From a virus (lineage: Duplodnaviria > Heunggongvirae > Uroviricota > Caudoviricetes), in the IMG/VR virus record IMGVR_UViG_3300010283_000213, positions 1-10,914 of that record: a stretch of 10,914 nt of DNA; one strand, 5' to 3'. Positions within the stretch are counted from its first letter, which is position 1, and every line of letters starts with the position of its first letter. The notes below the pieces were generated by a model that worked only from the letters and a program-made list of their open reading frames with translations, did not search any database and was not told the DNA's origin. Below, one piece after another: positions 1 to 10,914 of the stretch. A program made the position numbers and the translations under genes.

Positions 1-1
1 G

Positions 2-2026
2 CAGGAACAGGACGGGCGACTGGCTGGCGATAACGTGCCACCTGTCTGGCTTGGAGAGCAACAACTTGCCGAACTGGACAACCTGCAAATCGTACCGGAC
101 GGACGCTATCGCGTGCGTCTCTATCAGGCGGGGTTATTGCGTCCGGGGCTTGTTAATACCATCGGGCAGAAACTGGCAGCGGCAGGTGTCAGGGATGCTG
201 ATTATTATCCTGAAGGAATGCACAGCCAGAAACGGGAGAACTGGCGCGAATATCTGGAACGTGAACGGGCAGAGCAGGCGGAAAAGAAAAAGGTAGTTGA
301 ACTGCCTGTAAAGAAAAAAGAGCCATGCTATCAGGATGATGAATTAAAGCCCCGCGTTGAAAGTCGCGTCGATGGTGTTTTCTGGGTAACGCCCAAAGTG
401 GATAAGCAGTCAGGCGAAATTATCCGGCCTGAGACGTGGTTATGTTCTCCGCTTGAACTACTGGGAACGGGGACGATCGGTAAAGAGCATTACCGCGTGA
501 TGCGCTGGAAAAAATTAGCAAACCATGAAGTCATCACAATGGCGATCCCGTGTGGTGGCATTGGCGACCGTGACGGCTGGCGGTTGCTTAAAGATCACGG
601 GCTGAATGTGACAACAAATGGCAAATACAGGGCTATCCTGGCTGACTGGATGCAGTTAAGCGGAAGCCATGAGGAATGGCAGTTAAGCACAACAACGGGC
701 TGGCATTTTGGCGCGTACATCATGCCGGACGGTTCAATCATTGGTGATTCTGAAAAACCGATCCTGTTTACCGGAAAAAGTGCCGCTGTTAATGGCTATT
801 CGGTTGCGGGTACGGCGGAGGGCTGGCGCGACAGCGTGGCGCGGCTGGCTGGTGGCAATCCGTCCATGATGCTGGGTGTTGCCACGTCACTGGCAGCACC
901 TTTGATTGGCCTTGTTGGTGCTGACGGCTTCGGGGTACATCTTTTCGAACAGTCATCGGCAGGGAAAACCACCACGCAGAACATCGCTTCAAGTTTATGG
1001 GGAGAGCCGGACGCGCAACGGCTGACCTGGTACGGAACGGCGTTAGGTATCGCCAACGAGGCCGAAGCACACAACGACGGGCTGTTACCCCTGGATGAAA
1101 TAGGCCAGGCCGGAAACGCGCGGGAAGTGTCCACGTCAGCCTATACGCTGTTTAACGGTTCGGGGAAATTACAGGGGGCGAAGGACGGCGGCAACAGGGA
1201 GATCAAACACTGGCGCACGGTGGCAATCAGCACCGGAGAAATGGATGTTGAGACATTCCTCAAAAGTGAGGGGGTAAAAGTCAAAGCAGGCCAGCTTGTC
1301 CGTCTGCTTAACGTACCGATGGAGAAAGCCACGCAATTTCACGAATACAGCACCGGAAAGGCGCACGCAGACGCGTTAAAGGATGCCTGGACTGCAAATC
1401 ACGGGGCGGCGGGTCGTGAGTGGGTTAAATGGCTGGCAGACCACCAGCAGGAGGCAAAGGACACGGTAAGGGAATGCCGCGAACGGTGGCACAACCTGAT
1501 ACCGGAGAGCTACGGCGAGCAGGTCCACCGCGTGGGGGAACGTTTCGCCATACTGGAGGCTGCGCTTGTGCTTTCCGGTCATGTAACTGGCTGGGCCGCG
1601 CAGGAATGCCGGGACGCAATACAGCATAACTTTAATGCCTGGGTGAAGGAGTTCGGCACGGGTAACAGGGAATTTAAACAGATGGTTGAACAGGCTGAGG
1701 CGTTTTTGTCGTCGTTCGGGTTCAGTCGATACCTTCCTTACCCAAACAGTGATGAGCGTGATTTACCGATTAAAGACCTTGCCGGATACAGAAAGGGGAG
1801 TATCAGAAATGAAGATGATGAGTTCCGTTTTTACACGTTTCCTCATGTGTTTGAGGGTGAGATAGCACAGGGATTTAATCCGTCTCACTTTGCCCGCGCG
1901 TTGAGTGCTGCCGGAATGCTGGAAGCGGGTAACGATCGCCGTTACAAGAAAAAGGCGCTCGGCAAAATTGGGGGTAAGCAGCATGTTTTTTACGTGATGA
2001 TGTTCCAGCCTGAGGCAGACGATTAA
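2..2026 (+). CDS. Replication primase/helicase (P4 alpha-like / Pri-Rep-like), 5'-partial: the reading frame is open to the window edge, so the GTG at 35 in the ORF track is not the true start
   Basis: Frame stays open from nt 2 with no upstream stop; 663+ aa; Walker A P-loop (SSAGKTTT) mid-protein; long C-terminal domain; TAA stop at 2024-2026; iteron array begins ~25 bp downstream, the usual replicon layout of P4-like and PICI satellites. Family assignment is from motif and context, not a search. Confidence 0.7.
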   Translation, partial: QEQDGRLAGDNVPPVWLGEQQLAELDNLQIVPDGRYRVRLYQAGLLRPGLVNTIGQKLAAAGVRDADYYPEGMHSQKRENWREYLERERAEQAEKKKVVELPVKKKEPCYQDDELKPRVESRVDGVFWVTPKVDKQSGEIIRPETWLCSPLELLGTGTIGKEHYRVMRWKKLANHEVITMAIPCGGIGDRDGWRLLKDHGLNVTTNGKYRAILADWMQLSGSHEEWQLSTTTGWHFGAYIMPDGSIIGDSEKPILFTGKSAAVNGYSVAGTAEGWRDSVARLAGGNPSMMLGVATSLAAPLIGLVGADGFGVHLFEQSSAGKTTTQNIASSLWGEPDAQRLTWYGTALGIANEAEAHNDGLLPLDEIGQAGNAREVSTSAYTLFNGSGKLQGAKDGGNREIKHWRTVAISTGEMDVETFLKSEGVKVKAGQLVRLLNVPMEKATQFHEYSTGKAHADALKDAWTANHGAAGREWVKWLADHQQEAKDTVRECRERWHNLIPESYGEQVHRVGERFAILEAALVLSGHVTGWAAQECRDAIQHNFNAWVKEFGTGNREFKQMVEQAEAFLSSFGFSRYLPYPNSDERDLPIKDLAGYRKGSIRNEDDEFRFYTFPHVFEGEIAQGFNPSHFARALSAAGMLEAGNDRRYKKKALGKIGGKQHVFYVMMFQPEADD

Positions 2027-2049
2027 CCCCCCTGTGTGAGGTGAAAAGT

Positions 2050-2174
2050 TGCGGGTTATGCGGGTTATCCTGTGTATAAGTGAATTAACTGTATGAATAA
2101 AAAGGAAATCAATAACCCGCACGTAACCCGCAAAACGGCAGTTATAACCCGCAAAAGTGCGATTATAACCCGCA
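2050..2174. repeat. Iteron-type replication origin (cluster 1): 2 tandem TGCGGGTTAT-type repeats (2050-2068), an AT-rich spacer, then 4 inverted copies (A/G)TAACCCGCA at 2112, 2123, 2144, 2165
   Basis: Directly read: 9-10 bp repeats in opposite orientations flanking an AT-rich stretch (2069-2111); downstream copies spaced 11, 21 and 21 bp; located immediately 3' of the primase/helicase gene. Confidence 0.7.
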
Positions 2175-2237
2175 GAATTTCACCGTAAGGGTGTAAACAA
2201 GCGTAACTATCAACGTTAAAACCGGAGAACAGACAGC

Positions 2238-2660
2238 ATGACAGCACAGATAGCAGCTTACGGGCGGCTGGTGGCTGACCCGCAGTTAAAGACCACCAGC
2301 AAGGGCACACAAATGGCTATGGCAAGCATGGCGGTCCACCTGCCGTGCAATCAGGCAGATGACGGACAGGCGACGATGTGGTTATCCGTCCTGGCGTTTG
2401 GCAGACAGGCCGACGCACTGGCAAAACACCACAAAGGCGAGCTGGTGAGCGTGGCGGGTAACATGCAGGTAAGCCAGTGGACAGGCCAGAACGGGGAAAC
2501 GCGGCAGGGCTGGCAGGTTATCGCAGACAGCGTAATCAGTGCCAGAACGGCGCGACCTGGTGGCAAAAAAGGCCAGCAGGGTCAGGCTACTGACGCTCTA
2601 AATAGGGCTAAGCAACAGGCGGGGAATGATGATCCATACGGGGATAACATACCCTTTTAG
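2238..2660 (+). CDS. ssb: Single-stranded DNA-binding protein (SSB-like, OB fold) with acidic C-terminal tail ending DNIPF
   Basis: 140 aa; ATG at 2238 with upstream GGAG; Gly/Gln-rich linker followed by acidic tail ...NDDPYGDNIPF resembling the DDDIPF tail of bacterial SSB; N-terminal region consistent with an OB fold. Confidence 0.75.
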   Translation: MTAQIAAYGRLVADPQLKTTSKGTQMAMASMAVHLPCNQADDGQATMWLSVLAFGRQADALAKHHKGELVSVAGNMQVSQWTGQNGETRQGWQVIADSVISARTARPGGKKGQQGQATDALNRAKQQAGNDDPYGDNIPF

Positions 2661-2677
2661 CGATAACAGGGGGATAC

Positions 2678-2926
2678 ATGCCAGTGACATTTGAAGAAGT
2701 TCAGCAACATAAAAAGTTTCATGGTATTGATGATCTGGAAACCACGACAGCAAAAAAATATCGCCGTCTGCTTTCTTCCGATGCGTTATTTGTTGTGGAT
2801 CATCATGATTTTCTGCGCAGCTCACTGACCGGGGAAATTTTCGCAACCAACCGTGAGCAGGTGGAAGCGATGATCGAATATTTGTGGAAAATAAGGCGCA
2901 GAATGCGCGATCCCGTGAAACAGTAA
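2678..2926 (+). CDS. Hypothetical small protein (82 aa), function unknown
   Basis: Strong SD (AGGGGGA) 6-8 nt upstream of ATG 2678; 17 nt after the ssb stop (operon-like); followed by an intrinsic terminator. No family recognised. Confidence 0.55.
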   Translation: MPVTFEEVQQHKKFHGIDDLETTTAKKYRRLLSSDALFVVDHHDFLRSSLTGEIFATNREQVEAMIEYLWKIRRRMRDPVKQ

Positions 2927-2935
2927 AGCGATAAA

Positions 2936-2963
2936 GGCCCGGATTTTTCCCGGGTCTTTTTTT
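2936..2963 (+). terminator. Candidate rho-independent terminator after the replication/ssb operon
   Basis: GC stem CCCGG (2938-2942) / CCGGG (2950-2954) with 7-nt loop, followed by TCTTTTTTT (2955-2963). Confidence 0.55.
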
Positions 2964-3023
2964 CAGGTTTTGTAAATTATTTGTTCGTGGTTGTTTCTGG
3001 CTGTTCAGTGATTCTGGCTGATA

Positions 3024-3051
3024 TTTACATACTGATTTTTATGTATATGTT
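3024..3051 (+). promoter_or_regulatory. Candidate sigma70-type promoter for the head/packaging operon (-35 TTTACA, 16-bp spacer, -10 TATGTT)
   Basis: Hexamer match only; sits in the 274-bp intergenic region upstream of the capsid gene. An activator-dependent promoter nearer the 15-bp direct repeats at 3098-3132 is equally possible. Confidence 0.25.
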
Positions 3052-3097
3052 GGCGTGTGGCACTCAGACGTGAGCCGCCACAATGCCGCCTGACCCC

Positions 3098-3132
3098 CTG
3101 CGCGATGCCGGGTTGATCTGCGAGATGCCGAG
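3098..3132. promoter_or_regulatory. Tandem 15-bp direct repeats CTGCG(C/A)GATGCCG(G/A)G spaced 20 bp apart, upstream of the capsid gene: candidate regulator binding sites
   Basis: Read directly: 3098-3112 and 3118-3132 (13/15 identical); a third ATGCCG at 3083-3088 about 22 bp upstream. Confidence 0.35.
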
Positions 3133-3200
3133 AGTGTCGGGCGGCGCTCCCTCCGTGTTGGTTTCACGTCCTGAATCTTAACCAATACGAGAAAACCTTC

Positions 3201-4370
3201 ATGAAGAAATTAATCGAACTCCGCCAGCAAAAAACCGCCCTGAAAAACCAGATGCGATCCCTGCTGGAAAAAGCCGACAGTGAAAACCGCAGCCTGAACG
3301 ATGACGAGGGCAAACAGTTTGATGAACTGCGTGCAAAAGCCGACTCCCTCGACACAGAAATTTCCCGCCTCGAGTCTGTGGCTGATGAAGAACGCAGCAA
3401 GCCAGGAACGGGCATCCAGAAATTATCATCTGATGAATTGCGTAACTACATCGTAACCGGAGATGTGCGATCACTGTCCACCAGCACTGACAGCGGCAGG
3501 GATGGCGGATATACCGTAATTCCTGAGCTCGATCGCGAAGTCATGCGCCAGCTACAGGATGACAGTGTTATGCGCGTGATCGCGACCGTGAAGACTGCAA
3601 AATCAAATGAGTTTCAGAAACTGGTTTCCACTGGCGGCGCAACTGTAGGACGAGGCACAGAAGGCAGCGCACGCAGTGAAACCAACACCCCGAAAATTGA
3701 ACGCGTAACCATCAAGCTGAATCCGATCTACGCCTACCCGAAAACCACGCAGGAAATCCTTGATTTTTCAGAGGTGGATATTCTGGGCTGGTTATCCTCC
3801 GAAATTGCCGACACGTTCGCCAGCACCGAAGAGGATGATTTTGTTAATGGCGACGGTAACGGCAAGCCGAAAGGCTTCATGGCTTACACCCGTGCGGCGA
3901 CCAGTGACAAAACCCGCGCTTTTGGCACCATTGAAAAAATGGTAGCGGCAAGTGGAACCGCCATTACAGCGGACGAACTGATCGACATTCTCTACAAGCT
4001 GAAAGCGAAATACCGCAAAAATGCCGTCTGGGTGATGAACTCGGGCACGGCAGGGACACTACAGAAGCTGAAAAATGAGAACGGCGATTATATCTGGCGC
4101 GACAGCCTTAAAGAAGGTGCGCCGGATATGTTGCTTGGTCGTCCTGTTTACTGCCTGGAGTCCATGCCGGACATCGGCGCAGGAAAAGCACCGCTAGCGG
4201 TTGGCGATTTCAGTCGTGGTTATTTCATCGTTGATCATGTAACAGGGATTCGCACCCGACCGGACAACATTACTGAACCCGGATTCTACAAGGTCCACAC
4301 GGATAAATATCTGGGCGGTGGTGTGGTGGATTCAAACGCCATCAAAATTCTGGAAATGAAAGCTGGCTAG
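3201..4370 (+). CDS. Major capsid protein, HK97 fold, with N-terminal coiled-coil scaffold (delta) domain
   Basis: 389 aa; N-terminal ~70 aa strongly charged with heptad-like pattern (MKKLIELRQQKTALKNQMRSLLEKA...), as in HK97-type capsid proteins with fused scaffold; followed by prohead protease and portal genes. Confidence 0.85.
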   Translation: MKKLIELRQQKTALKNQMRSLLEKADSENRSLNDDEGKQFDELRAKADSLDTEISRLESVADEERSKPGTGIQKLSSDELRNYIVTGDVRSLSTSTDSGRDGGYTVIPELDREVMRQLQDDSVMRVIATVKTAKSNEFQKLVSTGGATVGRGTEGSARSETNTPKIERVTIKLNPIYAYPKTTQEILDFSEVDILGWLSSEIADTFASTEEDDFVNGDGNGKPKGFMAYTRAATSDKTRAFGTIEKMVAASGTAITADELIDILYKLKAKYRKNAVWVMNSGTAGTLQKLKNENGDYIWRDSLKEGAPDMLLGRPVYCLESMPDIGAGKAPLAVGDFSRGYFIVDHVTGIRTRPDNITEPGFYKVHTDKYLGGGVVDSNAIKILEMKAG

Positions 4371-4382
4371 TCATGAGTAAGG

Positions 4383-4405
4383 AGGAGGCTGCGGCCTCCT
4401 TTTTC
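4383..4405 (+). terminator. Candidate intrinsic terminator/attenuator immediately after the major capsid gene
   Basis: Perfect 7-bp stem AGGAGGC (4383-4389) / GCCTCCT (4394-4400), 4-nt loop TGCG, then TTTTC. Confidence 0.55.
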
Positions 4406-4424
4406 AGCTTTATGGAGTACACCG

Positions 4425-4985
4425 ATGAAAAACACCGATTTTGAAATCCGCACATCTGAACTGACCGCCAGCAATAAAAAGCTGGTGGGGTATGCCGTTC
4501 GCTGGAACAGCCTTTCAGAAATTATCTGGGACGAATTCCGCGAACAGTTCACGCCGGGGGCTTTTGCTGACTATCTGGCGGCGGGTAATGATGTGCGCTG
4601 CCTGTATGAGCATGACTATACCCAACTGCTGGGGCGCACCAAATCCGGCACTCTGGTACTGACTGAGGATAACACCGGGTTACGTTTTGAACTGACACCG
4701 CCGGATACCCAGCTTGGAAAAGATGTGCTTACGCTGGTGGAGCGTGGCGACATTACAGGAATGAGCTTTGGTTTTCGCGCATTATGCGAGGAGTGGAGTA
4801 TCGCGCAAAAACCGTATTTGCGTACCGTAACCGCCGCTGAACTCCGTGAAATCACAATAACGTCGATGCCTGCTTATCCAGAATCTGGCGTGGAGATTGC
4901 CCACCGTTCGTTGTTTGCACAGCACCCTGAATTATGCCCGACAGGAAATAATCGTCATCGCTGGTCTGAGCTGGCGGGGTTGTGA
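4425..4985 (+). CDS. Prohead maturation protease, HK97 family (peptidase S78/U35-like)
   Basis: 186 aa; position between capsid and portal genes; N-terminal MKNTDFEIRTSEL...GYAVRWNS... typical of HK97-type prohead proteases; SD-like GGAG upstream. Confidence 0.8.
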   Translation: MKNTDFEIRTSELTASNKKLVGYAVRWNSLSEIIWDEFREQFTPGAFADYLAAGNDVRCLYEHDYTQLLGRTKSGTLVLTEDNTGLRFELTPPDTQLGKDVLTLVERGDITGMSFGFRALCEEWSIAQKPYLRTVTAAELREITITSMPAYPESGVEIAHRSLFAQHPELCPTGNNRHRWSELAGL

Positions 4986-4986
4986 T

Positions 4987-6201
4987 ATGTGGTGGCCTTT
5001 TAGTCGTAAAAAAAGCGAGCAGCGTAACCTGTCCATTGATGATTTTCTGGCGCTGTCCGGCGTACCGAATACCGGATCCGGAGAATATGTTTCTGCCGGG
5101 ACGGCTGAATCATTGCCTGCAGTGATGAATGCGGTTTCTGTCATCGCTGAGGCGGTGGCCACGATGCCGTGTTATCTGTATCTGGTACGTAATGACAAGG
5201 GCAGGGAGGCGCGGGAATGGCTGGACAGTCACCCGGTAGATATTCTGCTGAATGAGCAGCCTAATTCGTGCCAGACACCTTACCAGTTTAAACGCACAAT
5301 GATGCGTCACTGCCTGCTGAACGGTAACGCCTATGCGGTTATTGAGTGGGGGCAGGACGGGCAGCCAAAATCACTTCATCCTTATGCGCCGGGGTGTGTT
5401 GTACCGGAACGCACAGGCGCACACAAATACCGCTATACCATCACCGAACCCTGTACAGGAACGGTGCGCACGTATTTACAGGAAGAAGTTCTGCATCTCC
5501 GCTATGCCTCGGATGATGGCTTTCTGGGGCGTTCCCCCGTCACGATTTGCCGTGAGGCGCTGGGGCTTGGCCTTGCTCAACAGCGTCACGGAGCCAGCAT
5601 TATGAAAGATGGCATGATGGCGGCAGGGATTATCACGTCAGGCGAATGGCTGGACGGTGTGAAAGGTAAACAGGCATTAGACGCCCTGGAACGCTACAAG
5701 GGGGCGAAAAATGCCGGAAAAACGCCAATCCTTGAAGGGGGCATGGATTACAAGCAACTGGGAATGAGTAACCAGGATGCGGAATGGCTGGCCTCCCGTC
5801 GCTTCTCCATTGAAGACATCGCCCGCATGTTCAACGTATCGCCTATTTTTCTGCAGGAATACAGCAACAGCACCTACAGCAATTTCAGCGAGGCAAGCCG
5901 CGCGTTTCTGACCATGACAATGCGCCCGTGGCTGGCGAACTTCGAACAGCAAATCAAGGCCGCTTTGCTGGTGGCTTCTCCCGTACCTGGTACCCGTTAT
6001 CTGGTTGAGTTTGATTCAGCCGATTTATTACGCGCCACACCCACCGAACGTTATGCCACGTATGAGAAAGGGATTAAGAACGGGATCATGAATCCGAACG
6101 AAGCCCGTGAGCGTGAGGGTATGCCGCCGCGTGAAGGTGGTGATGAGTTCAGCCAGGCATGGAAACAGACTGTGGAAATTAAAGGGAGAAAAGATGAGTG
6201 A
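4987..6201 (+). CDS. Portal protein, HK97 family
   Basis: ATG at 4987 one nt after the protease stop (the ORF track's 4897 start would overlap the protease gene by 89 nt); ~404 aa; size and context fit a portal. Confidence 0.8.
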   Translation: MWWPFSRKKSEQRNLSIDDFLALSGVPNTGSGEYVSAGTAESLPAVMNAVSVIAEAVATMPCYLYLVRNDKGREAREWLDSHPVDILLNEQPNSCQTPYQFKRTMMRHCLLNGNAYAVIEWGQDGQPKSLHPYAPGCVVPERTGAHKYRYTITEPCTGTVRTYLQEEVLHLRYASDDGFLGRSPVTICREALGLGLAQQRHGASIMKDGMMAAGIITSGEWLDGVKGKQALDALERYKGAKNAGKTPILEGGMDYKQLGMSNQDAEWLASRRFSIEDIARMFNVSPIFLQEYSNSTYSNFSEASRAFLTMTMRPWLANFEQQIKAALLVASPVPGTRYLVEFDSADLLRATPTERYATYEKGIKNGIMNPNEAREREGMPPREGGDEFSQAWKQTVEIKGRKDE

Positions 6202-6496
6202 AGCCAGAATTACACCTGATGAAGTCAGGGCACATCTTCGACTTGATGATGATTTATCCGGTGAAGGCGAACTTCTGAAAATGTATACCGATGCGGCGCT
6301 GGAAGCCTGCCAGAAGCATATCGGGAAACGTTTTGAAGACGGGCTGGAATTTACCCCGGCAATGCGTGTTGGTTGCCTGATGTACATCGCTTTCCTGTAC
6401 GAGAACCGGGAAGCGGTTTCACCAGTGGAGCACTCGGAACTGCCTATGGCTATTTCTGCGCTCTGGTCAGTTTATCGTGACGTAGGGGTGTACTGA
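6194..6496 (+). CDS. Head-tail connector / DNA-packaging protein, gp6-like
   Basis: Internal ATG at 6194 preceded by AAGGGAGAA; 100 aa; overlaps portal stop by 8 nt and shares ATGA with the next gene (translational coupling); MSEARITPDEVRAHLRLDDD... resembles gp6-like connector N-termini. Confidence 0.65.
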   Translation: MSEARITPDEVRAHLRLDDDLSGEGELLKMYTDAALEACQKHIGKRFEDGLEFTPAMRVGCLMYIAFLYENREAVSPVEHSELPMAISALWSVYRDVGVY

Positions 6497-6936
6497 TGCC
6501 GTGGCAACCATTAAGGCGATGCACTGAGCCTGGCTGTAATAAGCGCGTGAAGTCCGGCAAGTGTGAAGAGCACAGGCGGGCTGCATGGCGTGCAGAGGAT
6601 GCCAGACGGGGACACCGCCGCGCGCGCGGGTATTCCCGACAGTGGGACAAATACCGCGCCCTGTACCTGAGCAAAAACCCGTTATGCGTGCGTTGTCTGG
6701 CTAAGGGGATTTATACGCCAGCTCTTGTGGTGGATCACATCATTCCCATCAATGGCGGCGGTGATGTTCTCTTCTGGCCTGAGTGGAATCACCAGGCATT
6801 GTGCCAGACGTGCCACAACCGTAAGACGACACGGGAAGATCCAGCCACGAAAGCAAACCGTAAAGCGGGCATGTATCGCGAGCAGGAAGAACGGGCGGCA
6901 CACCGTAACGACTGGATGTATGGCGATGATGACTGA
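6496..6936 (+). CDS. HNH endonuclease (phage terminase-associated HNH)
   Basis: 146 aa; Cys-rich N-terminus (CTEPGCNKRVKSGKCEEH) and HNH motif (VVDHIIPINGGGD...WNHQALCQTCHNRKT); located just upstream of the terminase genes, as in cos-type HK97-like phages. Confidence 0.85.
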   Translation: MPWQPLRRCTEPGCNKRVKSGKCEEHRRAAWRAEDARRGHRRARGYSRQWDKYRALYLSKNPLCVRCLAKGIYTPALVVDHIIPINGGGDVLFWPEWNHQALCQTCHNRKTTREDPATKANRKAGMYREQEERAAHRNDWMYGDDD

Positions 6937-7105
6937 ACAGGAGCAAACCAGGCTGATACGTGGACTGATAAGGCAGCGTGACACATGGAAGACACAGGAG
7001 ACAGAGCACAAAGCCAACAGGACAGGGCGCACAAAACGCACCACAGCGAAGCGATTAACCGACCGTGACCGCGAGGTCATGGAATGTTTTCGCAATCGCT
7101 GGTGA
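6926..7105 (+). CDS. Possible small, highly basic protein (about 59 aa); coding status uncertain
   Basis: Frame-2 ORF whose unique part (6937-7105) lies between HNH and terS; Arg/Lys/Thr-rich product; DNA is A+C-rich and T-poor, so it may instead be non-coding packaging-site DNA. Confidence 0.25.
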   Translation: MMTEQEQTRLIRGLIRQRDTWKTQETEHKANRTGRTKRTTAKRLTDRDREVMECFRNRW

Positions 7106-7180
7106 GGCCGTCAGAGGGGGTGGGGGTGGTTTTCAGGACGAAACCGTCCCTGCCGGACACCGACCGCCCCCTCAAATTTT
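7106..7180. promoter_or_regulatory. GC-rich inverted-repeat element between HNH and terS: candidate cos/packaging recognition region
   Basis: GAGGGGGTGGGGGTGG (7114-7129) facing CCGACCGCCCCCTC (7160-7173), with inner palindromes GGACG..CGTCC and GTCC..GGAC (7135-7159); position HNH-[site]-terS matches where cos lies in HNH-terminase phages. Confidence 0.3.
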
Positions 7181-7224
7181 TGTGCACGGTAATTTTTTTG
7201 AAAATAATTGGGCGAAAAAAGAAC

Positions 7225-7581
7225 ATGGCAAGACCACCAAAAGCCCCCGCTTACCTGGATGAAATCGCGGTCAGGCAGTGGAAGGAAAAATCGCGCCAGC
7301 TTTCCGGGCGGGAAGACCTTACCCCCGCCGACTGGAGCAATCTGGAACTGTATTGCGTTAACTACTCCATATACCGCAAAGCCGTCGAAGACCTTGCGAC
7401 GCGCGGGTTCAGCATTGTTAACAGTCAGGGCAGCGAGAGCAGAAACCCCGCCCTGAGCGCAAAGGCTGACGCAGAAAGAATAATGATCAAAATGGCTTCT
7501 TTGCTGGGTTTTGACCCGGTAAGCCGCCGCAGAAATCCACCGGAAACAGAGGAAGAGGACGAGCTTGACTGCCTGGCATGA
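7225..7581 (+). CDS. terS: Terminase small subunit (P27-family-like)
   Basis: Internal ATG at 7225 (MARPPKAPAYLDEIAVRQWKEK...), 118 aa; the track's 7084 start would run through the GC-rich element; directly upstream of and overlapping the large terminase. Confidence 0.7.
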   Translation: MARPPKAPAYLDEIAVRQWKEKSRQLSGREDLTPADWSNLELYCVNYSIYRKAVEDLATRGFSIVNSQGSESRNPALSAKADAERIMIKMASLLGFDPVSRRRNPPETEEEDELDCLA

Positions 7582-9226
7582 GTACGCAGAAGGCGTAAAA
7601 AACGGCAAAATTACGGCCTGTAAACGACTGAAACAGGCCGTTAAACGGTATTTTTCTGACCTTGAAAACCCCCTTTACACGTTCGATCCGGAGGTCGTTG
7701 AGCGGTTTATTGCCTTTTCCAGGGTGTGTCCGCACGTAAAAGGCGCAATGCGTGGTAGCCCCATTGAGCTGGAGCCGTGGCAGCAGTTCGCCTTTGCGTG
7801 CATCCTGGGCTTTAAGGTTAAGGCCACCGGACGGCGCAAATACACCAGCGCATTCATTGAAGTACCGCGAAAAAATGCCAAATCCACGGTCGCCGCTATC
7901 CTGGCTAACTGGTTTCTGGTTATGGAAAACGGGCAGCAGGATATTTACACCGCCGCCGTGAGTCGTGATCAGGCGCGGATCGTGTTTGATGATGCGCGTC
8001 AGATGTGCCTTTTATCCCGACCGTTACGAAAGCGGGTAAATATTCAGGCACACAAGGTGATACACCCGAAAACCAACAGCCTGTTAAAGCCACTGGCAGC
8101 AAAAGCAGCAACCATTGAAGGTACAAACCCGAGTCTTGCCATTGTGGATGAATATCACCTGCACCCTGACAACGGGGTTTATTCCGCGCTTGAACTGGGA
8201 ATGGGGGCACGCCCAGAGGGGCTGTTATTTGCCATCACCACATCGGGGAGCAACGTTGTTTCAGCCTGTAAACAACACTACGACTATTGCTGCCAGATAC
8301 TGGATGGTGAAGAGGTGAACGAATCCATGTTCGTGCTGATTTATGAGCTGGATGATGAAAGCGAGGTTGACGATCCGGCGATGTGGATAAAGGCGAATCC
8401 CAATATCGATGTTTCCGTAGATCGTGAAAAACTGGCCTCAACCATCCAGAAAGCGCGGGGTATTCCGTCGCAGTGGGTGGAAATGCTCACCAAGCGATTC
8501 AATATCTGGTGTCAGGGGGCTACGCCGTGGATGGGTAACGGTGCATGGGCTGAGTGCGCCGGAACGTTCACGGAGGAAGATTTACACGGTCAGGAGTGTT
8601 ACGCGGGGCTTGATTTATCATCCACAAGCGACATCTCCAGCGTGTGCTATGCCTTTCCGGTTGGTAAAACCATTATGCTGGTTTCTCGTCACTATCTGCC
8701 GGAATTTCAGCTACAGAACCCCGCCAATAAAAACCGCGCCATCTATCGCCAGTGGGCAAAGGCGGGCTGGATACGCACAACACCGGGTGACTGCATTGAT
8801 TATGACCGTATCCGTGATGACATCATGCTGGATGCAGAGAATTTCAATATCAGGCTGGTGGGCTTTGATACGTGGAACGCCACGCACCTGAGAACGCAGT
8901 TACAGGGGGCAGGCTTTGAGGTGGAGCCGTTCCCTCAAACCTACCTTCGTTTCAGTCCGGCGGCGAAATCGTTCGAGGTTTTTGTTAACCGGAAGGTGAT
9001 TGTGCATCGTGGTGATCCTGTGCTGGCCTGGTCAATGAGTAATGTTGTGATGCAGAGTGACGCGAACGCCAATATCAAGCCGAACAAGAAAAAATCATCC
9101 AACAAGATAGACCCGAGCGTTGCGGCGCTGATGGCGTTTGGCACATTCCAGGCTGAGCATGAGGAATTTGCATTTGATATGAGCGACAGCCAGAAAGAGC
9201 GACTAGCGGCGTTTGATGGGGTATGA
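7565..9226 (+). CDS. terL: Terminase large subunit (ATPase + nuclease)
   Basis: 553 aa; Walker A-like PRKNAKST, Walker B-like LAIVDEYH, C-terminal acidic nuclease-type region; TTG start at 7565 overlapping terS end (an alternative downstream start is possible). Confidence 0.85.
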   Translation: MTAWHEYAEGVKNGKITACKRLKQAVKRYFSDLENPLYTFDPEVVERFIAFSRVCPHVKGAMRGSPIELEPWQQFAFACILGFKVKATGRRKYTSAFIEVPRKNAKSTVAAILANWFLVMENGQQDIYTAAVSRDQARIVFDDARQMCLLSRPLRKRVNIQAHKVIHPKTNSLLKPLAAKAATIEGTNPSLAIVDEYHLHPDNGVYSALELGMGARPEGLLFAITTSGSNVVSACKQHYDYCCQILDGEEVNESMFVLIYELDDESEVDDPAMWIKANPNIDVSVDREKLASTIQKARGIPSQWVEMLTKRFNIWCQGATPWMGNGAWAECAGTFTEEDLHGQECYAGLDLSSTSDISSVCYAFPVGKTIMLVSRHYLPEFQLQNPANKNRAIYRQWAKAGWIRTTPGDCIDYDRIRDDIMLDAENFNIRLVGFDTWNATHLRTQLQGAGFEVEPFPQTYLRFSPAAKSFEVFVNRKVIVHRGDPVLAWSMSNVVMQSDANANIKPNKKKSSNKIDPSVAALMAFGTFQAEHEEFAFDMSDSQKERLAAFDGV

Positions 9227-9513
9227 CGAGAATGACTGAAACTGATCTACTAAAAATAATTCGCCGCATTACCGGAATCAGTCAGCAGCCTGACGAACAG
9301 GCTACACAGCCGGACAGCGTGATAGCCGAAAATTACGCGCGTGTGGTGGCTGAGGTAATGCGCCGTGACGGTATTGAGCTTAACGGCGTGGATATGCGCA
9401 ACATACGAACCAGAGTTCTTGAGTTGCTGGCATACCGTCGCCGTTCTCAACAACGGAGGGAGAGCGCGAAAAATACTTACCAGTGGAGGAAGCCGGAGCA
9501 CTTACGGCGGTAA
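9223..9513 (+). CDS. Hypothetical small protein (96 aa), last gene of the packaging operon; possibly a head-completion/adaptor protein
   Basis: ATG overlaps the terL stop (ATGA); Arg-rich C-terminus; no family recognised. The adaptor role is inferred from position only. Confidence 0.5.
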   Translation: MTRMTETDLLKIIRRITGISQQPDEQATQPDSVIAENYARVVAEVMRRDGIELNGVDMRNIRTRVLELLAYRRRSQQRRESAKNTYQWRKPEHLRR

Positions 9514-9552
9514 CTGGTTGATATTACCGAAAGTGCAAAAATGCACTTAGCA

Positions 9553-9646
9553 ACTGGTGGCGAGTTGCAGATCTGCAACTCGACTATGAAACTACGGAAA
9601 CTACCCGTAGTTTGGGTAGTAAGAGCAACACCCAGATTTTGGGGCT
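9553..9646. repeat. 94-bp structured direct repeat, copy 1 (contains a 22-bp perfect palindrome and nested heptamer repeats)
   Basis: 90/94 identical to 9987-10080; palindrome CGAGTTGCAGATCTGCAACTCG at 9561-9582; then AAACTAC-GG-AAACTAC-CC-GTAGTTT-GG-GTAGT. Confidence 0.8.
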
Positions 9647-9708
9647 TACTTGCGATACCCAAATATAGGGTATCGGTGGCATCACTGGCCCCACTTTCCT
9701 GATGTGTT

Positions 9709-9862
9709 TGCGGGTTATTTGGGGGTGGTTGCGGGTTATTTTGAATGGCTTGCGGGTTACGATTTGGCTAACATTTGAACGTGTCATTTTTCAACGCATT
9801 GATATTAAATAATAAAAAATACTTAGCACGCGAAGATAACCCGCTAACCCGCATAACCCGCA
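9709..9862. repeat. Second iteron cluster (ori- or crr-like): 3 direct TGCGGGTTA(T/C) at exact 21-bp phasing (9709, 9730, 9751), a ~75-bp AT-rich spacer, then 3 inverted TAACCCGC copies (9836-9862)
   Basis: Same iteron sequence as cluster 1 at 2050-2174; followed by (TA)5 at 9882-9891; no ORF of convincing coding character spans it. Confidence 0.7.
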
Positions 9863-9986
9863 CTGTTTTGTATATATATACGAAAAATTGCATTCAGGAG
9901 GGGGAGCAAAATCCCTACCGTCTCTTATCTCTTGGAGTGCCCGCCTCTTCGAATTTTAACCCCCGTGAAATTACAAAATTTCCCTG

Positions 9987-10080
9987 ACTGATGGCGAGTT
10001 GCAGATCTGCAACTCGACCATGAAATTACGGAAACTACCCGTAGTTTGGGTAGTAAGAGTAACACCCAGATTTTGGGGCT
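9987..10080. repeat. 94-bp structured direct repeat, copy 2; ends exactly at the IS903 left terminus
   Basis: Mismatches to copy 1 at 4 positions; palindrome at 9995-10016; similarity to copy 1 stops at 10080, where the IS terminal inverted repeat begins. Confidence 0.8.
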
Positions 10081-10914
10081 GGCTTTGTTGAATAAATCGA
10101 ACTTTTGCTGAGTTGAAGGATCAGAGCACGTATCTTCCCGACAACGCAGACCGTTCCGTGGCAAAGCAAAAGTTCAAAATCACCAACTTGCCCACCTACA
10201 ATAAAGCCCTCATCAACCGTGGCTCCATAACTTTCTGGCTGGATGATGAAGCCATTCAGGCCTGGTATGAGTCGGCAACGCCTTCATCACGGGGAAGACC
10301 TCAGCGCTATTCTGATCTCGCCGTCACCACCGTTCTGGTCATTAAACGCGTGTTCAGGCTGACCCTGCGGGCTGCACAGGGTTTTATTGATTCCATTTTT
10401 ACACTGATAAATGTTCCGTTGCGCTGCCCGGATTACACCAGTGTCAGCAAGCGCGCAAAGTCGGTTAATGTCAGTTTCAAAACGTTCACCCGAGGTGAAA
10501 TCGCGCATCTGGTGATTGATTCCACCGGGCTGAAGGTCTTTGGTGAAGGCGAATGGAAAGTCAAAAAACACGGCAAAGAACGCCGTCGTATCTGGCGGAA
10601 GTTGCATCTGGCCGTTGACAGCAACACACATGAAATCATCTGTGCAGACCTGTCGCTGAACAACGTAACGGACTCAGAAGCCTTCCCGGGTCTTATCCGG
10701 CAGACTCACAGAAAAATCAGGGCAGCATCGGCAGATGGCGCTTACGACACCCGGCTCTGTCACGATGAACTGCGGCGTAAGAAAATCAGCGCCCTTATCC
10801 CACCCCGAAAAGGTGCGGGTTACTGGCCCGGTGAATATGCAGACCGTAACCGTGCAGTGGCTAATCAGCGAATGACCGGGAGTAATGCGCGGTGGAAATG
10901 GACAACAGATTACA
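10081..10914 (+). mobile_element. IS903-group (IS5 family) insertion sequence, left end and most of the transposase gene; continues beyond the window
   Basis: Starts with GGCTTTGTTGAATAAATCG, which I recognise as the IS903 terminal inverted repeat; the downstream ORF translates to a DDE transposase closely resembling IS903 transposase as I recall it. Confidence 0.85.
10158..10914 (+). CDS. IS903-group DDE transposase, 3'-partial (runs off the window)
   Basis: Hand translation from GTG 10158 is open to the window end (252 codons): VAKQKFKITN...LHLAVDSNTHEIICADLSLNNVTDSEAFPGLIRQ...ASADGAYDTRLCHDEL... Absent from the ORF track only because no stop is reached. Start could also be the TTG at 10113. 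Confidence 0.85.
   Translation, partial: MAKQKFKITNLPTYNKALINRGSITFWLDDEAIQAWYESATPSSRGRPQRYSDLAVTTVLVIKRVFRLTLRAAQGFIDSIFTLINVPLRCPDYTSVSKRAKSVNVSFKTFTRGEIAHLVIDSTGLKVFGEGEWKVKKHGKERRRIWRKLHLAVDSNTHEIICADLSLNNVTDSEAFPGLIRQTHRKIRAASADGAYDTRLCHDELRRKKISALIPPRKGAGYWPGEYADRNRAVANQRMTGSNARWKWTTDY

Follow-up and report, generated by a model that had tools for sequence, protein, structure and literature searches.

Phage-inducible chromosomal islands that form capsids (cf-PICIs) are an already described family of phage satellites, whose prototype EcCIEDL933 builds its own small capsids, packages itself alone and needs only tails from its helper phage; its induction requires alpA (10.1101/2022.09.08.507074). 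When the genes of its packaging module were mutated singly, all except the hypothetical gene 1792 were essential for transfer, and the mutation of gene 1792 severely reduced it (10.1101/2022.09.08.507074). The structure of its HK97-fold, T=4 capsid has been solved, and studies on cf-PICIs showed the release of tail-less capsids that can be joined to the tails of other species; which tails are compatible is determined by the two proteins of the neck (10.1101/2025.02.11.637232). Induction by a helper, small capsids made by the island and transfer requiring only foreign tails have been demonstrated for EcCIEDL933 and a few others (10.1101/2022.09.08.507074; 10.1101/2025.02.11.637232). cf-PICIs are reportedly among the most abundant phage satellites and cross species by means of the tails of unrelated phages, and recognizing them correctly keeps them from being mis-annotated as defective prophages. 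Here we analyse a stretch of viral DNA of 10,914 nucleotides (nt; IMG/VR record IMGVR_UViG_3300010283_000213, positions 1 to 10,914), called the window below. We conclude that it holds most of a cf-PICI of the EcCIEDL933 group, a reading to which we give a probability of about 0.9. This copy adds little new about the family, and near-identical copies of the element are already present in public genomes; its most interesting point is a neck with a connector only.

Kinship with EcCIEDL933 and the whole unit at hpt in KSC9

Searches against Pfam, PHROGs and NCBIfam gave concordant and strong matches for a single string of genes on the + strand (Table 1), in which all the open reading frames (ORFs) are intact and full length. 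An earlier note, made from the letters of the window, had proposed a satellite of this type carrying a replicon and a complete head and packaging module, and the elements it named (pri-rep, iteron origin, ssb, capsid, protease, portal, connector, HNH, terS and terL) are all present, intact and co-oriented, with profile matches to the families of the HK97 major capsid protein (MCP), S78 protease, portal, gp6-like connector, HNH, P27 small terminase (TerS) and large terminase (TerL). The region of the EDL933 chromosome which holds EcCIEDL933 (L003) is collinear with the window, the common order being DUF4222, pri-rep, ori, ssb, small ORF, MCP, protease, portal, connector, HNH, small ORF, terS, terL and small ORF. 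The two elements also have in common the identical iteron 9-mer TGCGGGTTA, a size of ~15.4-15.7 kb and the lack of tail and lysis genes. This synteny, the 56-94% protein identity to the validated EcCIEDL933 and a satellite-specific portal clade uphold the cf-PICI reading.

The functions expected of such an island can be followed along the gene string. Replication is represented by the DUF927 pri-rep with the adjacent iteron ori (2050-2174), capsid formation by the HK97-type MCP, protease and portal (62-81% identical to those of EcCIEDL933), the attachment of a tail by the gp6-like connector at 6194-6496, and packaging by an hnh-terS-terL set placed after the morphogenetic genes, an order kept in 80 loci. 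No tail, baseplate, holin or endolysin gene was found in the window, and the RefSeq annotation of the complete elements from Escherichia coli KSC9, PEC178 and 90-9280 lists no tail or lysis gene inside the unit. SatelliteFinder (PMC10085698) accepts cfPICIs that have 10 of its 11 core components, its Type B, to which 459 of 969 elements belong, as well as those that have 9 of 11. The window element falls in the Type B class, with 10 of the 11 components and no forbidden tail or holin component, int and alpA being seen in its relative.

The window is cut at both ends, and the size and borders of the unit were read from its relatives. When the window was compared by megablast with 5,426 complete E. 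coli genomes, 39 of them covered at least 80% of it, the best relative being E. coli KSC9, with 98.6% identity across window positions 1-9544. The KSC9 unit sits between gcd and hpt and is ordered int, DUF6387, AlpA-type HTH, ORF6N, Icd-like, DUF4222, DUF927 pri-rep, the window genes and hpt. Its integrase is of the tyrosine type, with Arm-DNA-bind_3 (PF13356) and Phage_integrase (PF00589) domains, and its regulator matches Phage_AlpA (PF05930, 5e-10). The integrase at one end and the AlpA regulator, which are not visible within the window and which the earlier note had advised looking for upstream together with an att site, were thus found by proxy, and both genes also occur in the PEC178, 90-9280 and ETEC4085 elements. 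In KSC9, the attachment (att) repeats TATGAAACATAyTGTAGAAG are separated by 15,738 bp (L001 10081-10103 and 25819-25841), so that an att-bounded unit within the range of ~10-18 kb is established for the window element by proxy. The left junction reads TATGAAACATACTGTAGAAG, the first hpt codons, and the true hpt start, at the right, reads TATGAAACATATTGTAGAAG. That hpt codons stand at the left junction, 15,738 bp from the real start, shows that the integration target of the KSC9 island is the 5' end of hpt, for which the island re-supplies the gene start (with a T4I change) and the upstream region. A scan of the window for tRNA and tmRNA genes found none, so that the site of integration is not a tRNA. 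Near the att core, both arms of KSC9 carry the tandem motif GTATATCACTCGGTGTATCACT (L001 10229-10250 and 25734-25755), and an analogous tandem, GGTGTAGTTAATGGTGTAGTnAAT, is present in both arms of EcCIEDL933 (L003 4283-4312 and 19508-19537); these 11-12-nt motifs are probably arm-type sites of the integrases.

Likeness to EcCIEDL933 has its limits. The KSC9 integrase is 47% identical to that of the prototype and the integration site is hpt instead of roxA/phoQ; the window element has neither the head-completion gene of family PF05521 nor the PerC gene; its iteron cluster 2 has moved to the right end and is enclosed there by a 99-nt repeat absent from EcCIEDL933; and the window copy carries an insertion sequence (IS) of the IS5 family. 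Two other characterized islands, KpCIDSM30104 and EcCIGN02175 (10.1101/2025.02.11.637232), have the same packaging-module architecture, with a portal 88% and an MCP 76% identical to those of the window. In them the neck is the variable part that sets tail specificity, and the window neck is likewise a sharply bounded swapped cassette, with the difference that both neck genes are present there and only the gp6-like gene here. Classical Gram-negative PICIs of the EcCICFT073 type have in common with the window element the int, alpA, Icd-like, DUF4222, primase and ssb modules, a terminal small ORF and a structured 99-nt element at the right end. However, they rely on a lambda-type cosN and on a helper terminase redirected by Rpp (PMC6739421), whereas the window element has its own portal, connector, HNH, TerS and TerL.

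Table 1. Features of the window, with the matches on which they rest and protein identity to the EcCIEDL933 counterpart
Feature	Position	Strand	Basis and remarks	Identity to EcCIEDL933
pri-rep (DUF927 primase/replicase)	2..2026	+	Pfam DUF927 7e-48; PHROG 1139 'DNA primase' 7e-180; 5' end cut by window edge, ~33 codons missing	90%
Iteron cluster 1 (putative ori)	2040..2184	.	2 direct TGCGGGTTA (2050-2067), AT-rich spacer, 4 inverted copies (2113-2174), 21-nt spacing	
SSB (single-stranded DNA-binding protein)	2238..2660	+	PF00436 4.9e-17	71%
Small conserved ORF, 82 aa	2678..2926	+	phrog_1957	43% (to hyp 11608)
HK97-fold major capsid protein (MCP)	3201..4370	+	PF05065 2e-71; TIGR01554 3.5e-102	64%
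Prohead serine protease (S78)	4425..4985	+	PF04586 7e-46	62%
HK97-type portal	4987..6201	+	PF04860 8e-93; TIGR01537	81%
gp6-like head-tail connector	6194..6496	+	PF05135; TIGR01560, 71 bits; sole neck gene present	56%
HNH endonuclease (packaging cofactor)	6496..6936	+	PF01844 8.8e-10; PHROG 144	84%
Small ORF, 61 aa, between HNH and terS	6920..7105	+	phrog_3173	77%
Candidate cos / packaging-initiation region	7106..7224	.	Conserved non-coding blocks GGGGTGGGGG (7117-7126) and CCGCCCCCTCAAATTTTTnnGCACGGnnATTTTTTTGAAAATA (7164-7206)	
Small terminase (TerS), P27 family	7225..7581	+	PF05119 4e-23; TIGR01558	88%
Large terminase (TerL), ATPase + nuclease domains	7565..9226	+	PF03354; PF20441	94%
Conserved terminal ORF (hyp96), 93-96 aa	9223..9513	+	phrog_1561	73%
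Right-end non-coding module	9553..10085	.	99-nt direct repeat (9553-9651, 9987-10085) flanking iteron cluster 2	
IS5-family insertion sequence	10081..10914	+	NF033579 2.8e-85; inverted repeat GGCTTTGTTGAATAAATCG; transposase from 10158; cut by window end	

The alternative considered in the earlier note was a decayed prophage, that is, the remnant of an HK97-like temperate phage whose tail and lysis genes were deleted. In such phages the MCP, protease, portal, connector, HNH, P27 terS and terL do belong to the same families, and the HNH-(cos)-terS-terL arrangement is the one found in the window, which also bears an IS at its right end, as a decaying element might. However, the HK97-like prophage of ETEC4085 (L090) has a portal and an MCP only ~32-37% identical to those of the window, and identity to any genuine phage record is at most 36%; such phages measure ~40 kb against ~15.7 kb and possess tail, lysis and lysogeny-control modules which the window element lacks. 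An intact HK97-like prophage was rejected in the same way, the elements of KSC9, PEC178 and 90-9280, bounded by host genes or att repeats in complete genomes, having no contiguous tail, lysis or immunity modules. Comparing the portal by tblastn with 50,697 phage records, we found only four matches above 60% identity, all the rest being at or below ~36%, so that the portal, and with it the packaging genes, falls in a clade of satellites apart from ordinary phages. These four are vB_KppS-Ant and the Pasteurella record Pmp8 (15-16.5 kb), a 3.8-kb fragment and the end of a 106-kb record that was not viewed in full; the 'phages' vB_KppS-Ant and Pmp8 are packaged satellite genomes. A portal-based scan with one genome per species gave 80 loci across Enterobacterales and Orbales, and all 80 are ordered MCP, protease, portal, [head completion], connector, HNH, terS, terL. 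The ratio of non-synonymous to synonymous substitution rates (dN/dS) of the window genes against EcCIEDL933, PEC178 and KSC9 is 0.05-0.32, connector included, indicating purifying selection, and together with the full-length ORFs this argues that we are not dealing with a decaying prophage. As the unit is moreover bounded by att repeats and host genes, measures 15.7 kb and has a PICI-type int, alpA and pri-rep, as its compact architecture recurs in many genera, and as the prototype behaves experimentally as a satellite, the prophage-remnant reading is effectively excluded.

Concerning vB_KppS-Ant itself (LR881103.1; L084), we observed that this 16.5-kb record, deposited as a phage, has the cf-PICI gene set. 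The 765-aa ORF following its terL (L084 2036-4333) is labelled 'tail length tape measure protein'; this had no support from Pfam or PADLOC, in which the ORF has no match, and it is probably an accessory gene.

A neck with a connector only

The neck of EcCIEDL933 (L003 15104-15442) has two genes between the portal and HNH: a PF05521 head-completion gene (the 'adaptor' of He et al.) followed by the gp6-like 'connector'. To relate these names to sequences we used the Klebsiella pneumoniae ATCC 13883 locus (L006), which we take to be equivalent to that of DSM 30104. Its identities of 35% and 62% equal those published for KpCIDSM30104 (10.1101/2025.02.11.637232). In the window the portal stop overlaps the start of the gp6-like connector, and no PF05521 homolog is present in the window or in the KSC9 island, the alignment showing a clean absence and tblastn giving no match. 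The 'complete head and packaging module' of the earlier note thus held for the capsid and packaging genes, whereas one of the two neck genes of the prototype is missing.

The comparison with PEC178 delimits the change. The MCP, protease, TerS and TerL of this element are 98-99% identical to those of the window and the flanks of the neck 95-100%, whereas the connector is only 56% identical. As the difference is confined to ~6165-6460 between conserved flanks, it is a cassette swap and not a scar. The connector-only variant is already catalogued, common and mobile. The module family occurs in 534 of the complete E. coli genomes, about 150 of which are connector-only (71 of these at least 99% identical to the window), the remainder having two neck genes and being largely O157:H7. 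Connector-only modules occupy hpt in KSC9, rcnR/thiM in 90-9280, with another integrase and a different primase family, and the terL of a prophage in ETEC4085. Across species, 10 of the 80 loci are connector-only, in Xenorhabdus, Pantoea, Symbiopectobacterium, Yersinia aleksiciae, Leclercia, Erwinia psidii and Gilliamella (about eight genera besides that of E. coli). They do not constitute a single clade, being scattered on the connector tree. The connector itself has ~100 aa in connector-only and two-gene elements alike, with no extra domain.

The ETEC4085 locus (L090 1-25001) holds, inside the terL of an HK97-like prophage, a connector-only island whose connector and that of the window are 99% identical. 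This recalls the helper-embedded satellites (10.1101/2022.07.18.500453), with the difference that the closest relatives of the window element occupy a chromosomal gene, hpt. The HK97-like prophage of ETEC4085 has connector, head-closure, gp10, tail-completion and tail genes of its own, and the arrangement is that of a cf-PICI embedded in a helper. The head-completion proteins of cf-PICIs are 50-62% identical to that of this prophage, against 32-37% for portal, MCP and connector.

Several observations weigh against the assignment of the window to a working cf-PICI. The head-tail 'adaptor' (PF05521), a core component for SatelliteFinder, is the one missing here, and it belongs to the EcCIEDL933 packaging genes that are essential for transfer, so that the window copy would not necessarily be transferred; its completeness is suggested by its relatives, the int/alpA end and attR lying outside the window; and the IS, which adds ~1 kb, could affect packaging size or right-end functions. 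One might thus suppose a true cf-PICI lineage no longer able to form transferable particles, having lost head completion and acquired the IS in this copy, the more so as EcCIEDL933 mutants in packaging genes other than gene 1792 lose transfer (10.1101/2022.09.08.507074), the head-completion homolog is absent from the KSC9 element as well and the IS interrupts the right-end module. We consider this quite unlikely, since ~150 of the 5,426 E. coli genomes hold the connector-only module, in many cases with 99-100% identity to the window, at no fewer than three integration sites, with varied integrases and even another type of primase; since the same layout recurs, scattered on the connector tree, in about eight other genera; and since purifying selection acts on the connector as on every other gene and the cassette was exchanged cleanly between conserved flanks, with no scar.

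If connector-only cf-PICIs are functional, the absence of the PF05521 gene implies that its function is dispensable for this type of connector or, more likely, supplied with the tail by an HK97-like helper. In necks of the HK97 and SPP1 type, the DNA is retained and the tail contacted by a head-completion or stopper protein (gp7/gp16) that caps the adaptor (gp6/gp15). A self-sufficient neck, whose connector would bind helper tails directly with no head-completion protein from any source, would agree with the tendency of connector-only connectors toward long tree branches, suggestive of a divergent function, and with the wide persistence of the variant. It appears doubtful given that capping is the normal arrangement for adaptors of the HK97 and SPP1 type, that the connector has the same length as in two-gene elements with no added domain, and that the island inside the ETEC4085 prophage, which is HK97-like and encodes a head-closure protein, has a connector 99% identical to the one in the window. 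We infer instead that connector-only islands may use the head-completion protein of the helper, and tentatively propose 'neck plus tail piracy', in which these islands would be a sub-type that dropped the stopper and whose connector is tuned to the head-completion protein and tail of an HK97-like helper. The hints for it are that purifying selection acts on a variant which is both common and mobile, that cf-PICI head-completion proteins are phage-like (50-62%), and that the 99%-identical connector lies inside such a prophage. If this is true, such islands would yield no stable DNA-filled tail-less capsids without a helper, unlike EcCIEDL933 and KpCIDSM30104. More generally, an exchangeable neck cassette, and the absence of a gene essential in the prototype from about a quarter of the E. 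coli elements with this module, bear on which helper functions are needed.

Replication origin, candidate packaging site and a proposed life cycle

The window contains the 9-mer TGCGGGTTA 12 times, where chance would give 0.09 copies. Cluster 1, directly after pri-rep, is collinear with EcCIEDL933 (L003 10194-10318). Cluster 2 comprises three direct copies at 9709-9759, an AT-rich spacer and two or three inverted copies at 9836-9862, and is homologous to L003 10376-10527, with 77% identity over window positions 9729-9880. In EcCIEDL933 the clusters lie side by side after pri-rep (L003 10194-10318 and 10354-10509), and in the window cluster 2 (9709-9862) is 7.5 kb from cluster 1 (2050-2174), past the last ORF. 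PEC178 also has its cluster 2 at the right end (L086 17091-17391). The putative replication origin of the window element is split, which would mean that such an origin can be divided into two distant iteron clusters.

Upstream of terS, the non-coding spacer (7106-7224) is a candidate for the cohesive-end site (cos) of cf-PICIs. When 64 distinct loci ranging from E. coli to Gilliamella are compared, most columns of its blocks GGGGTGGGGG and CCGCCCCCTCAAATTTTTnnGCACGGnnATTTTTTTGAAAATA show at least 75-90% conservation, more than the coding DNA on either side. Both ends of the linear vB_KppS-Ant record fall in this spacer, its first position lying 22 nt before terS and its last 37 nt beyond the homolog of the small ORF; as ~70 bp of the sequence of its relatives is missing, these ends are at best an approximate map of cos. 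In HK97-type phages whose cos cleavage depends on HNH, cos lies between the HNH and terS genes. Because of the conservation of the spacer, the ends of the vB_KppS-Ant record and this HNH-cos-terS layout, the cos of the window element is most likely within 7106-7224. A lambda-type cosN, which a classical PICI carries just upstream of its terS-like gene, was not found within one mismatch in the KSC9 island, and the window has only a chance-level match with two mismatches. The 61-aa ORF preceding the spacer is probably the counterpart of gene 1792 of EcCIEDL933, judging by its position and 77% identity.

From these elements a life cycle can be proposed, the steps of which, from residence in the chromosome to packaging, come from experiments on the prototype and are transposed here by homology. 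The ~15.7-kb island would reside in the chromosome, inserted, as in its closest relative, into the first hpt codons by a tyrosine integrase. A helper phage would trigger AlpA-dependent induction and excision, after which Pri-Rep is expected to bind the TGCGGGTTA iterons and replicate the island with the island's own SSB. Expression of the late operon would then provide the HK97-fold capsid protein, protease and portal for the assembly of small capsids (T=4 in the prototype), and TerS, TerL and HNH would recognize and cut the island cos, most likely in the spacer upstream of terS, to package unit-length island DNA. Finally, the gp6-like connector would dock on the portal, and a tail of the helper phage would complete the particle.

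The right end and minor features

The earlier note had placed the end of the element at repeats and an IS. The repeats are present, and hold the second iteron cluster rather than marking the end. The homology of KSC9 to the window stops at 10080, where the IS begins, and KSC9 goes on for 438 bp, to attR at the hpt start codon, so that the element does not end there. The IS is inserted within the second 99-nt copy, inside the element and not at its boundary, about 440 bp before the expected attR, and breaks no gene, attR lying beyond the window. It is 99.9% identical to plasmid copies annotated as IS5 family transposase; its inverted repeat GGCTTTGTTGAATAAATCG is presumably IS903-like, and we take its full length to be ~1 kb. 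The IS junction was found in none of the 5,426 complete E. coli genomes.

The two 99-nt copies (9553-9651 and 9987-10085) are 94% identical and bracket iteron cluster 2. The repeat forms three strong hairpins per copy (z-scores of -4 to -6), among them a perfect 22-nt palindrome, CGAGTTGCAGATCTGCAACTCG, with a central GATC. The unit occurs in 652 of the 5,426 E. coli genomes, mostly in single copy, and is absent from EcCIEDL933 and from the loci of other species. In the two single-copy genomes examined (L087 9001-9099 and L088 9001-9098), it immediately follows a homolog of the terminal ORF and lies at the right end of a classical PICI that does not form capsids. A permissive Rfam scan of the whole window, this structured repeat included, matched no family. 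Of two functions considered for the unit, that of a lambda-type cos site was rejected, as cosN is absent and a classical PICI has it elsewhere, upstream of its terS-like gene, and that of intrinsic terminators had no support, as the hairpins have no T-tracts and none was detected in a consensus scan.

Promoter and terminator scans of the window showed no enrichment compared with shuffled sequences. Reading the sequence, we noted a terminator-like GC hairpin followed by T7 at 2936-2963, directly 3' of the 82-aa ORF, which the consensus terminator scan did not recover. That ORF (phrog_1957) and the terminal ORF (phrog_1561) are both kept in EcCIEDL933 and other E. coli cf-PICI relatives, and neither matches any family or solved structure. 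For the terminal ORF, hyp96, no match was obtained in Pfam, NCBIfam, PADLOC or the sequences of the PDB, where Rpp structures are presumably represented, and its identification as an Rpp homolog has no support. In cf-PICIs as well as in classical E. coli PICIs, homologs of this ORF stand last. Short units lie 3' of this ORF, each opening with GCGGTAACTnGnTGATATT and continuing with a different small hairpin, the first overlapping the stop codon of the ORF. There are four of them in EcCIEDL933 (L003 18760-19190), two in KSC9 (L001 24500-24860) and one in the window (9505-9560), and KSC9 has an extra module of ~300 bp between its two units.

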